Of a stretch of 64,000 nt of DNA, positions 60,482 to 64,000 are shown in pieces. Source of the DNA: Vermamoeba vermiformis (lineage: Eukaryota); assembly GCA_045837725.1 (NCBI GenBank), contig JBEWZL010000212.1:1-64000 (forward strand), given 5' to 3'. The notes below the pieces were generated by a model. It made no database searches. It was not told the origin of the DNA and saw nothing but the letters and a program-made list of their open reading frames with translations. Position 1 is the first letter of the stretch, and each line of letters opens with the position of its first letter. The translations under genes were made by a program, and so were the position numbers.

Positions 60482-63400
60482 ATGGGCAACGAGCATCCAC
60501 ACCATAAGAAAAAGGATATTAAAGATATCAAGGACCTCGATGTACCGATCATTGGGCTTGATGCAACAAATAATCAGGGCGTTAGGATCTTGGGACAGAT
60601 TAACTACGCTTGTGACGGTTGTAAGCGTAGAATAGAGCCAAATGAAAATAGATGGGTTTGTTGGGAGTGTGGTGAAGACGTGTCGTCCTATGATCTTTGT
60701 GCTGAATGTCAAGGACAACATCCGCATCCAGTAGTCGGTGCAATCCGTAAGTAGTATTCCAAAATAATAATCTATTATTAATTAATAAAATTATACGAAA
60801 AATTACGACCCTTGATTTGACTTTTAATATTATTTGAAATTTAGCCTCAATGGTGACTCAGCCAACTGCCGCTCCAACCTTTGCTGACCAAATAGAGTAA
60901 GCCAGTATCTTATACATAATAGTGATAGTATTTAATCACCAATTAAGGAATTGGATGATGTTATATCGCGAACGAAAGCTTTATGGCACTCGCGATCCTT
61001 CAGACAACATGAAATACAAGTGGATCTCGTATCAACAGGCGTACGAAATGACGCGAGACTTTAGTTCAGGTCTATTGTCTAAATTTCCAACGGTAAGCGA
61101 TAGAATTCCAAATACAATTTACAAACTAACCGATCTGAACTACAGCGAAGCGTCATTGGTATTTGTGGCATTAATCGCGTGGAATGGTTTGTTACTGACA
61201 TAGGTATATAATATAATGGTAGTAATTGAGTTGTATTAACATTTTTTTTTAGGTTGTGTCTTTGGTGGATTTTTATCGGTGCCGATCCATTGGAACTATG
61301 GTACGCGACTAATCAAATATCAATCTCGTATTAAAATACACCATATAGATGCTGTTGCTGCTTCTCATATTGTTCAACACGCTGAGATCCAGTGCCTGGT
61401 TACAACCGAAAAACAATTGCCGGTCGTAAGTTTTGACTTATTTTGCCCGATTAAATTAACCTTGATTTTTAGTTCGTGGAGATAGCTAAACAGAAGAACA
61501 CACCAGCTTTTAAGACTATAATTTGCATGGATAATATCATTAAGGACTTTGAGATTATTCATGCTGAACTCAAGGACGTCGGAGTTGAGCTGTTTAAATG
61601 GGATGAAATTCTAGCAATAGTATGTTATTATTAGTCTAATATATTCGTGTTAAATATGCTTTTTTTGTAGGGCAAAGCTGATAGAAAGCCAATTATTCCG
61701 CTCAAGCCGGATGACATGATCACACTGACTTACACTTCTGGCAGCACTGGCAAACCGAAAGTAAGTTCATGAACTCAGTGAAATTTCGTATTTATAGAGG
61801 ACTACTAGGGAATTATCGTGCTCGATAAACATTTGAATCGAGACATTCGTCCATGGCGTACAGGCAGTTTGCCAGTAGTGACCATTTCATTCGGTCCACT
61901 CGCTCACGCTACTGCCAGAAGATCAGCTTATGTTACTCTCGCTAGCGGTGGCAGGCTAGGCATATTCAATGGCGTAAGTCTCATCATTAGTTTGACATTT
62001 TGACACGCTGTGCAGGTGGTCAGATCTGTCAGGTTGACACGAAGGAATATTCTAATCTTATTTATCTGTTAGAGTATGGACACGCTGTTTGAAGATATCG
62101 CTGTATTAAGACCGACATTTTTGACTTGTCCTCCAAGGTAACGGCAGTTATTAATTTTTAAGCGGGTCCGGATCTGATCCCGTTCAAAAGAGTGTGGAAT
62201 CAGATGTACACGGACTTTATTCAGACATTAGATCTAGCTCTTAAAGCCAATCCCGACAAAGACCCCGAGAAAATCACCGAGGGCTTATACAACGAAATCA
62301 AAATGAAGCTCGGATGTGACAGGCTTTGGGTACGGATGTGACCTCTAATTTTTCATTAAATTAACTAAACAATAGAGTATTACTACTGGTGGTGCCCCGA
62401 CGAGTCCCGAAGTGATTCAGTGGATGAAAGATTGTTTCAAGGTTGGTGTGTTTGACAGCTACGGAACCACTGAGATTGGTGGCGTTGCCATCGACAGTCA
62501 ACTAAACGCAGACCGTAAGCAACTTAATCAATTTATTGTAGCCGTCTAATATAACATATTTATAGTTGTGTACAAGCTCGTCGATGTGCCCGAGCTCGGA
62601 TACTTTTCGACCGATCAGCCTCTTCCACGGGGTGAATTGTGGGTCAAACCGACGTTAGAAAGAGAAGGCGTCATGAATTACTACAAAGATGAAGTCAATT
62701 CCAAAGAGAATTACGATGCTGATGGTTACGCAACTACAGGCGACATTGTCGAGTTGAATCCGAGAACGAGAATGATCAAAATTATTGACCGAAGGAAAAA
62801 CTTTTTTAAATTGGCACAAAGCGAATTTGTTGCGCCTGAACGAGTCGAAAATATTCTACTGCAATGCTCGTTAGTTAATCAAATGTGGATTTATGCCGAG
62901 AGCATTCAAAGTTACGTGGTCGGCGTGGTCGTTTTGAAAGACAGCGTAAGCCTTACATTGAGACCCTGTTTATCACATACTAATCATAGCATCTTAGACC
63001 TACGAAGACTTTCGAAAAGAGAAAGGCATTGGTGACACTAACGAACAGCTGTCAAATAATCCCGAGTTAATTACACGAGTATTAAGAGCGCTGAAGGAGG
63101 TCGGAGAGAAAGGTAGTTTAAGGCCATATGAAATCCCAAAAGCGATCAAAATAGATCACAGCCCATTCACGGTACAAGATGGGCTCCAAACACCAAGTTT
63201 CAAGCTGAGCCGCGCGTCATTGGTCAAACGATACCGCGACGAAATGCGCGAGCTATATAAGGCCACGAACGACAATATGCAACAACAGATCCAACAACTA
63301 ATAGCTGACCTCGTTGCCAATGATTTGAACATTGAAGTTGGTGATGGAAAAGCAACGCCATTGGTCGAAATGGGTGTTGATTCAGTGAAAGCCACAAAGT

Positions 63401-64000
63401 TGCTTAACGAGATCAAACAGCGATTTAAAGTCGACGTGCCTATATCCGTGCTCTATAATAACGCGGCTAGTATTAATGCTATTGGCGAGTACGTCTTGAA
63501 GCAGCAGCAAGGTCAAGATGTCAAAATTGACAAGCCCAAGTACGATTGGTTCAGTGAATCAGCCTTGCCAAGTGAAGTCATTGAAGCGATAAAATCACAT
63601 CAGTACGAGAAAAAGAGCCGAGATGGCGCGTCAGTTTTGTTGACAGGTGTCACTGGCTTCGTCGGCGCGTTTTTGTTGAACGAGTTACTGGCACAGAAAG
63701 AGAATTACAAAGTTTATTGCCTAATTAGGACAAAAGAGAAGCAAGAAAAGGCCTTTATGAGCCCTGAAGCGATGAAACGATTGGAAGATACATTGACCGA
63801 GTATCAGATCTGGAACAATGTTAATAAGCATCTTGACCGAGTCATACCCGTAAGTTATATAACATTAAGCTTATGGATGAGATGATATACTCAATTTATA
63901 TTATGATAGGTTGCTGGTGATTTGGAACTGGAAAATTTTGGTTTGAACGAAACGGATTTTGATCTGTTGTGCAAGGAAGTTTCGATCATTTATCACAACG
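60482..64000 (+). CDS. ZZ-type zinc finger fused to a carboxylic acid reductase-like A-T-R enzyme (partial, runs off window)
   Basis: ZZ: CDGC..RWVCWEC..YDLCAEC..HPH. Adenylation: [51 protein letters not shown]. Carrier: MGVDSVKA. Reductase: VLLTGVTGFVG. Exons 1-3 splice in frame. Confidence 0.92.

Follow-up and report, generated by a model that had tools for sequence, protein, structure and literature searches.

A predicted ZZ finger–carboxylic acid reductase gene in Vermamoeba vermiformis and its eukaryotic relatives

A 64,000-nucleotide (nt) stretch of Vermamoeba vermiformis DNA (contig JBEWZL010000212.1 of assembly GCA_045837725.1, positions 1 to 64,000 of the forward strand) was analysed; we call this whole stretch the window, and all positions are given in its coordinates. 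At its far end, from 60482 to 64000 on the plus strand, lies a gene in which a ZZ-type zinc finger precedes an adenylation (A) domain, a carrier (T) domain and a thioester reductase (R) domain, the last three in the A-T-R order of carboxylic acid reductases (CARs). We give a probability of about 0.8 to the reading that this segment covers the first three-quarters, from the 5′ end, of an intact nuclear gene encoding a single CAR-type polypeptide of approximately 1170 residues, arranged ZZ, adenylation, carrier, thioester reductase, with a finger that is most likely peptide-binding. A first-pass annotation had reported the ZZ-A-T-R arrangement at this locus, and that observation was confirmed.

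The spliced gene model contains 15 exons and 14 introns and gives 904 stop-free codons from the ATG at 60482 to the end of the window, with an in-frame stop codon upstream of that start codon (60482-60484). All 14 introns are of the GT-AG type, 46-99 nt long and with a GC content of 0.18-0.43, and the GC content of the exons is 0.44; the first-pass description of an intron-rich eukaryotic gene is supported by this model. The gene is truncated by the window end at 64000, the last ~270 residues of the R domain lying beyond it. The features of the locus are as follows.

60016-60481, no strand assigned: intergenic stretch between two diverging genes, presumed promoter region
60482-60746, plus strand: exon 1 (88 codons; GTAAGT donor, phase 1), with the initiating ATG, an N-terminal tail of low confidence (residues 1-40) and then the ZZ finger
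60611-60727, plus strand: core of the ZZ finger (residues 44-82), with six Cys and two His as zinc ligands, Asp45 and Asp71
60747-60844, plus strand: intron 1 (98 nt, phase 1, GTAAGT...TTTAG, GC 0.18)
60845-60896, plus strand: exon 2 (52 nt), linker and first A-domain helix, with an in-frame ATG at 60850
60948-61092, plus strand: exon 3, which keeps the frame open into the adenylation domain
60948-62945, plus strand: adenylation domain, exons 3-13
61146-61203, 61253-61300, 61349-61425, 61473-61619 and 61671-61760, plus strand: exons 4-8
61809-61973, 62073-62137, 62191-62329, 62376-62514 and 62566-62945, plus strand: exons 9-13
61728-61811, plus strand: A-domain motif of 12 residues
62460-62480, plus strand: A-domain motif YGTTEIG
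62571-62648, plus strand: 26-residue peptide cited in the first-pass annotation, within exon 13
62736-62753, plus strand: A-domain motif TGDIVE
62781-62840, plus strand: A-domain motif of 20 residues
62998-63849, plus strand: exon 14, which completes the A domain, spans the carrier domain and enters the reductase domain
63190-63213, plus strand: TPSFKLSR, at the end of the A domain
63373-63387, plus strand: GVDSV, site of the phosphopantetheine-carrying serine, inside the PP-binding match
63637-63678, plus strand: LLTGVTGFVGAFLL, NADPH-binding Rossmann motif of the R domain, inside the NAD_binding_4 match
63910-64000, plus strand: exon 15, R domain continued up to the window end, where it breaks off (NAD_binding_4 at 28.1 bits over profile positions 66-95)

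Protein families were scanned with single exons and with stored relatives as queries. Exon 14 matched the Pfam families PP-binding (47.1 bits) and NAD_binding_4 (52.6 bits), and the carrier serine of GVDS and the Rossmann motif of the R domain, both named earlier, were found at the positions listed above. Exons 3 and 13, each scanned alone in Pfam, matched no family at E ≤ 0.01. In NCBIfam, exon 13 matched carboxylic acid reductase at 116.9 bits (E = 5.9e-34), with the next family at 34.9 bits; the 26-residue peptide within this exon had been likened to CAR/FadD9, and the match of its exon agrees with that assignment. The core motifs of the A, carrier and R parts are all intact in the model.

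The exon joins were compared with related proteins. A search of exon 14 against longer proteins gave seven matches at E ≤ 0.001 (3217 candidates), the best of which was P0001, a protein of 939 residues encoded on a 2880-nt contig. Because a contig of this length is too short to hold the introns, we regard P0001 as transcript-like and intron-free. It aligns with the spliced model over 671 residues at 91% identity and without gaps, spanning the joins of exons 7-15. At the 5′ end, a profile built from homologues only gave the model with the small exon 2 a score of 155.3 bits as one stretch, and three one-intron alternatives without this exon scored 148.0, 139.2 and 138.6 bits. These alternatives, with introns 60747-60901, 60747-60922 and 60747-60928, all fell below the small-exon model and were rejected. 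The spliced model is collinear with its relatives, from finger through linker to A domain. The proposal that the ZZ exon is joined in frame to the A domain through a small exon is supported by this score and by relatives that carry finger and A domain in one frame.

To find such relatives, exon 1 was searched with HMMER against 1.84 billion representatives, and 14 proteins were recovered at E ≤ 0.001. P0015 from Pelomyxa schiedti (1114 residues) is a full ZZ-A-T-R protein. In the fragments P0012 and P0016 a single open frame runs from the finger into the A domain, covering its first 100-180 residues, before unrelated sequence sets in. A profile search gave 271 matches, of which the best 120 were considered. 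Full-length members among the matches listed are P0022 of Rotaria socialis, P0024 of Adineta steineri, P0026 of Rotaria sp. Silwood2, P0025 from ENA, P0023 and P0034 from two EukProt transcriptomes, and a Pelomyxa protein, P0032. Precomputed Pfam lists place PF00569 on three of the best 120 of the 271 matches. The Cys/His motif stands ahead of the A domain in seven full-length A-T-R proteins, and the Pfam ZZ profile reaches or exceeds its cut-off in P0022, P0025, P0026 and P0034. These eukaryotic relatives are 28-32% identical to the window protein and have the same four-part architecture, ligand spacing and conserved Asp residues. Judged by these comparisons, the window protein and the eukaryotic ZZ-A-T-R predicted proteins are one family. 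Members of this family, with or without the finger, occur among the matches listed in Amoebozoa, Heterolobosea and rotifers. The only names given to the relatives at source are 'long-chain-fatty-acid--CoA ligase', 'FadD9' and 'unnamed protein product'.

Two further observations were made among these sequences. The EukProt protein P0035 has no finger, and its garbled N-terminus looks like the product of a faulty gene model. P0014, P0017, P0019 and P0020 are short predicted proteins of 77-217 residues that carry this variant of the finger (C-D-x-C ... [ST]-[FY]-D-x-C ... H-P-x-H) ahead of tails that are unrelated or of low complexity; each is probably the first exon of another family member, read on into an intron.

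The finger itself was examined by profile, structure and conservation. Exon 1 matches Pfam ZZ (PF00569) at 25.7 bits (E = 9.8e-06), above the gathering cut-off of 21.4. Residues C44, C47, C60, C63, D71, C73 and C76 are invariant across 16 sequences, at least 90% of the same 16 keep D45, R57 and H80, and H82 is invariant in a set of five. An AlphaFold2 model of the finger has a predicted local distance difference test score of 74-90 over residues 41-88 and is disordered upstream. When this model was compared with the PDB by Foldseek, ZZ domains (CBP, p300 and p62) made up nearly all of the top matches, with a TM-score on the target of 0.53-0.67, a root-mean-square deviation of 2-3 Å and a probability of up to 1.00, the best E value being only 0.023. 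With a five-sequence profile searched against the PDB, the first 31 rows are all ZZ domains, including those of CBP (2.6e-05), ZZZ3 (4.2e-04), HERC2 (1.8e-03) and p62 (2e-03). The closest ESM Atlas clusters also contain ZZ domains, all at scores below 0.9, which we take as a lead only. On this evidence the finger keeps all of the zinc-ligand residues (six Cys and two His, of the two-zinc type).

In the alignment from the five-sequence profile, D45 and D71 fall on D824 and D848 of ZZZ3. Excerpts from a report on ZZZ3 describe D824 and D848 as holding the amino group of histone H3 Ala1, alanine mutation of either one abolishing binding, and state that the second Asp, together with an Asp or Asn at the first site, is kept in all H3-binding ZZ domains (PMC6138639). 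D2709 and D2730 of HERC2 are described, in excerpt, as behaving in a like manner with an arginylated peptide (PMC9001736). By this alignment the finger retains both acidic-cage aspartates with which other ZZ domains bind free N-termini, and it looks to be built like an N-terminus reader. By analogy, the finger most likely holds two zinc ions and binds proteins or peptides, or else may be purely structural. It shares with those of p300/CBP (where the ZZ lies beside the histone acetyltransferase domain), ZZZ3, HERC2 and p62 its zinc ligands and an acidic cage of Asp (or Asn) plus Asp, and probably its fold. It differs from the ZZ of CBP by insertions of three and four residues, and from all of these in its partner domains, which are those of a metabolic enzyme and not of the chromatin or ubiquitin apparatus. 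A complex prediction for the Rotaria ZZ (residues 1-56) with its own A domain (residues 57-645) and two zinc ions returned a score of 0.00 and is not evidence either way. N-myristoylation at the MG start was considered and dropped on the basis of consensus rules.

Several lines of comparison place the enzyme part with the CARs. The best NCBIfam family for the relatives is carboxylic acid reductase (NF041592), at 472.6 bits for P0002 of Arcella intermedia and at 436.9 bits for P0001, the latter score lacking about 185 N-terminal profile positions. The R domain of P0001 is complete and scores 272 bits against TIGR01746, above the cut-off of 213. The best solved relatives are the bacterial CARs 5mso, 5msp and 5msc, whose alignments run the whole length (E = 2.6e-92 to 5.6e-80); residues 35-926 of P0001 align to residues 235-1166 of a CAR chain at E = 2.6e-92. 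We take the source organisms of these structures to be Mycobacterium marinum, Segniliparus rugosus and Nocardia iowensis. The earlier view that the A, T and R parts are CAR-like is therefore supported. The window protein has in common with bacterial CAR/FadD9 the order A-T-R, the A-domain clade, the core motifs, the phosphopantetheine serine and the Rossmann motif; it differs in being only 26-32% identical, in its 14 introns, in its N-terminal ZZ and in lying outside the bacterial clade. Fungal nonribosomal peptide synthetase (NRPS)-like carboxylate reductases and Lys2 are likewise eukaryotic A-T-R enzymes that need a phosphopantetheinyl transferase, and their T-R halves are alike (223 bits), but their own A domains are of the NRPS type. 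We know of no ZZ finger in either of these groups.

Two trees were built from A domains, both by quick search without bootstraps. The first, of 51 rows under LG+G4, contains a CAR clade of 34 rows with a support of 100 in the Shimodaira–Hasegawa-like approximate likelihood ratio test (SH-aLRT). The ACSL-like A-only proteins lie apart from it, as do the NRPS-type A-T-R proteins, a distant outgroup. The second, of 40 rows, includes 16 added relatives from GTDB and was computed under a site-heterogeneous model with an ACSL outgroup. In it, 19 bacterial and three unnamed rows form one clade (SH-aLRT 100), and the 12 eukaryotic rows fall outside the bacterial clade in unresolved lineages. In both trees the window protein lies inside the CAR clade (SH-aLRT 100) and groups with Arcella and then with Pelomyxa (95-98); in the second tree it joins P0001 (100), then Arcella (95), then Pelomyxa and one EukProt row (94). 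The A-domain phylogeny that had been suggested as a check thus assigns the A domain to the CAR lineage and not to the ACSL or NRPS type, as far as sequence comparison goes. An identity as an ACSL/FadD acyl-CoA synthetase was rejected: the A domain is not free-standing but continues into a carrier and a reductase domain, and the ACSL-like proteins form a separate clade, so that the database name 'long-chain-fatty-acid--CoA ligase' is misleading.

Bacterial CAR relatives were also collected by a GTDB scan, in which [KRS]L[VQE][DS]VPE[LM]GY was one of two patterns used. More than 556 were found and 80 kept, mostly from Mycobacteriales and Streptomyces and also from Sorangium, other Myxococcota, Novosphingobium and Ideonella; their identities are all 27-32%. 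The Cys/His finger motif was present in none of the 80 kept relatives, and Pfam ZZ in none of the three bacterial CARs scanned. On these counts the finger is a conserved, ancestral-looking trait of a eukaryotic CAR branch and is lacking in the bacterial enzymes.

A number of observations weigh against the reading of the locus as one CAR-type enzyme with a ZZ finger. For the finger, no Foldseek match reached E ≤ 0.001, and exon 1 alone, searched against PDB sequences, found a designed C2H2 finger first (E = 3.9e-04) and ZZ domains at E = 0.055 (CBP) or worse. The C2H2 identity was rejected as spurious, consisting of repeated weak matches to the CxxC...H pattern, whereas the profile search is topped by ZZ domains only. 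Pfam ZZ lies just under its cut-off in P0032, P0012 and P0014 and was not reported in P0015, P0023, P0024 and P0016, and P0027 of Acrasis kona, as annotated, begins directly at the A domain, without a finger. Acidic residues alone conferred no peptide binding on other ZZ domains, according to an excerpt (PMC6138639). For the enzyme, the catalytic Tyr/Lys and the C-terminal part of the R domain lie past the window end, and P0001 and P0002 reach only about one third of the 1300-bit equivalog cut-off of NF041592; since these scores are so far under the cut-off, the locus is CAR-like and not an equivalog of bacterial CAR. For the exon joins, P0001 is 5′-incomplete and begins inside exon 7, so that the joins of exons 1-6 lie beyond this transcript-like match, and P0002, at 38% identity, likewise lacks its 5′ end, starting near exon 3/4. 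A word-based search of exon 1 against longer proteins found no match. Around exon 1, 34 one-intron and 37 two-intron joins are likewise stop-free and in frame; with so many alternatives, the in-frame joining of exon 1 is weak evidence by itself.

These last points bear on the alternative that exon 1 is a separate small gene for a free ZZ protein of ~90 residues, or an alternative non-coding leader, with the reductase starting at the in-frame ATG at 60850 in exon 2. Unspliced, exon 1 is a complete open reading frame (ORF) that would terminate at the TAG at 60752-60754, intron 1 contains an AATAAA at 60784 (the only one of the 14 introns to do so), and short ZZ-only predicted proteins are known in P0008, P0014, P0017 and P0020. 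P0008, however, with 92 residues and 92% identity to exon 1, reads past the conserved donor site into unrelated residues, which would be expected if introns had been ignored in calling genes on a close relative. Merely 98 nt separate exons 1 and 2, which leaves no room for a terminator and a promoter, and exon 1 has no other plus-strand gene to belong to, the stretch 60016-60481 lying between diverging genes. ZZ and A domain share one ORF in P0012, P0016, P0015, the rotifer proteins and the EukProt proteins, the spliced linker fits the homologue profile in length and sequence as one stretch, and direct reading of the sequence shows an immediate stop if exon 2 is skipped. We therefore consider a separate ZZ gene or leader very improbable, and read exons 1-15 as one gene.

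The class and the origin of the enzyme could also be seen otherwise. Another kind of A-T-R enzyme, such as a Lys2-type alpha-aminoadipate or amino-acid reductase or a four-electron, alcohol-releasing reductase, would be in keeping with the low CAR equivalog scores, with matches of the T-R part to TIGR03443 (Lys2, alpha-aminoadipate reductase) and to NRPS terminal reductases, and with the divergence of the eukaryotic clade, at most 32% identical to any bacterial CAR. Yet P0001 reaches only 223 bits against TIGR03443, whose cut-off is 1030, and does so with the T-R half only; in the trees the A domain falls within the CAR clade, whose neighbours are the ACSL-like proteins, and far from the NRPS-type A-T-R enzymes, and solved CARs align whole length, so that we regard this alternative as unlikely while allowing it some weight. 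The first-pass annotation had further called the enzyme mycobacterial-type and domesticated, which would amount to a recent horizontal gain from Actinomycetota of a CAR/FadD9 gene that later acquired introns and finger. The best-named relatives are indeed FadD9 and CAR, the 80 kept bacterial loci are mostly from Mycobacteriales or Streptomyces, and the VPELGY motif is common to both groups. Against such a gain, the bacterial clade excludes the 12 eukaryotic rows, and in the approximately unbiased (AU) test a clade of eukaryotes plus Actinomycetota, a group named after the tree had been seen, was rejected (log-likelihood difference 226, p-AU 4.3e-06), while eukaryotic monophyly was not (p-AU 0.455). 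The 14 introns and the distribution over Amoebozoa, Heterolobosea and rotifers count against it as well. The tree topology thus argues against a simple recent transfer from mycobacteria, which we hold to be highly improbable, and with 437-473 bits against 1300 the earlier label is not supported either; by its sequence relationships the enzyme is CAR-type but not specifically mycobacterial.

For a CAR-type enzyme with an N-terminal ZZ, a scheme of action can be proposed, in which catalysis, substrate, product, zinc binding and any ligand of the finger are inferred, the catalytic part from the CAR family. Fatty acids as the substrate and control by proteostasis, both put forward in the first-pass annotation, are conjecture; for the latter idea the finger offers no more than the conserved residues with which other ZZ domains hold a free N-terminus. 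The A domain would activate a carboxylic acid with ATP, and the acid would be loaded as a thioester onto the phosphopantetheine arm of the GVDS serine, which would require a separate phosphopantetheinyl transferase. The R domain would then reduce the thioester with NADPH and an aldehyde would be released, although the choice between aldehyde and alcohol release is not one that sequence by itself would decide. The finger probably stands outside catalysis; its two conserved Asp residues would grip the free N-terminus of a binding partner, be it protein or peptide, so that the enzyme would be tethered or regulated. That the finger is a working reader of free protein N-termini, bringing the reductase to a specific protein or peptide, is a speculative extension that we think probably incorrect. 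If it were true, a reactive aldehyde or an enzyme-bound acyl group could be placed beside the amino terminus of the partner, or alternatively an N-terminal signal could switch the enzyme on or off, an arrangement that would resemble the p300 ZZ steering its adjoining catalytic domain. Protein N-termini would then be linked in a new way to the chemistry of lipids or aldehydes, by a family that is spread in amoebae and was passed to bdelloid rotifers.

The remainder of the window holds other genes. On the minus strand, 58314-60015 is a gene for an EGF/teneurin-like, cysteine-rich secreted protein that diverges from the ZZ-reductase gene; the ORF 59779-60066 on the same strand holds MRYILSFFALVWLVCNQANA, which is signal-peptide-like, with an ATG at about 60015-60013. 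Two full-length, apparently intronless actin genes lie at 577-1752 (minus strand) and 53573-54904 (plus strand), with Pfam Actin scores of 511.3 and 510.6 bits; the antisense ORFs over them, 517-1677 (plus strand) and 53804-54937 (minus strand), match no family and are probably artefacts. Two long ORFs at 15042-17283 (plus strand) encode ankyrin repeats and, after them, a patatin-like phospholipase domain. At 39792-41958 (minus strand) lie exons of an inositol-trisphosphate/ryanodine-receptor-like channel, which match RIH, Ins145_P3_rec and MIR weakly, and at 43364-43981 (minus strand; 77.7 bits) an exon matching imidazoleglycerol-phosphate dehydratase. This enzyme belongs to histidine biosynthesis, a pathway that animals are not known to have, and so speaks against an animal host. 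A kinase gene and an NmrA-like ORF are also present. Taken with the tree, this gene content indicates a eukaryotic host other than an animal, probably an amoebozoan.

CARs are of value as biocatalysts, and work on them has so far dealt with enzymes of bacteria and fungi. Elsewhere, ZZ fingers are found in proteins of chromatin, the ubiquitin system and autophagy. Among the papers listed by a literature search, none described a ZZ finger on a CAR or other A-T-R enzyme, and no published function for eukaryotic ZZ-A-T-R proteins was found in the literature searched. The first-pass statement that no ZZ-CAR was known to have been described agrees with this search, but the fusion is not unique to this locus: the architecture is already in public protein sets, unnamed or misnamed. 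Nowell et al. (2024) searched the proteomes of rotifers for proteins that combine A, T and C domains (PMC11258130); a term search of the main text of that paper found no 'reductase', 'zinc finger', 'NRPS-like', 'FadD9' or 'long-chain'. An excerpt of another paper names a radiation-induced 'thioester reductase domain-containing protein' of Adineta vaga (PMC12220480), an unverified candidate for the ZZ-A-T-R family.

The find is a modest one, in that the sequences are already public. What it brings out is that the locus belongs to a distinct eukaryotic branch of CAR-like enzymes, shared by amoebae, a heterolobosean and bdelloid rotifers and mislabelled as acyl-CoA ligase or FadD9. A ZZ finger on a metabolic enzyme is an unusual pairing, and it hints that aldehyde production by these enzymes may be regulated or localised.

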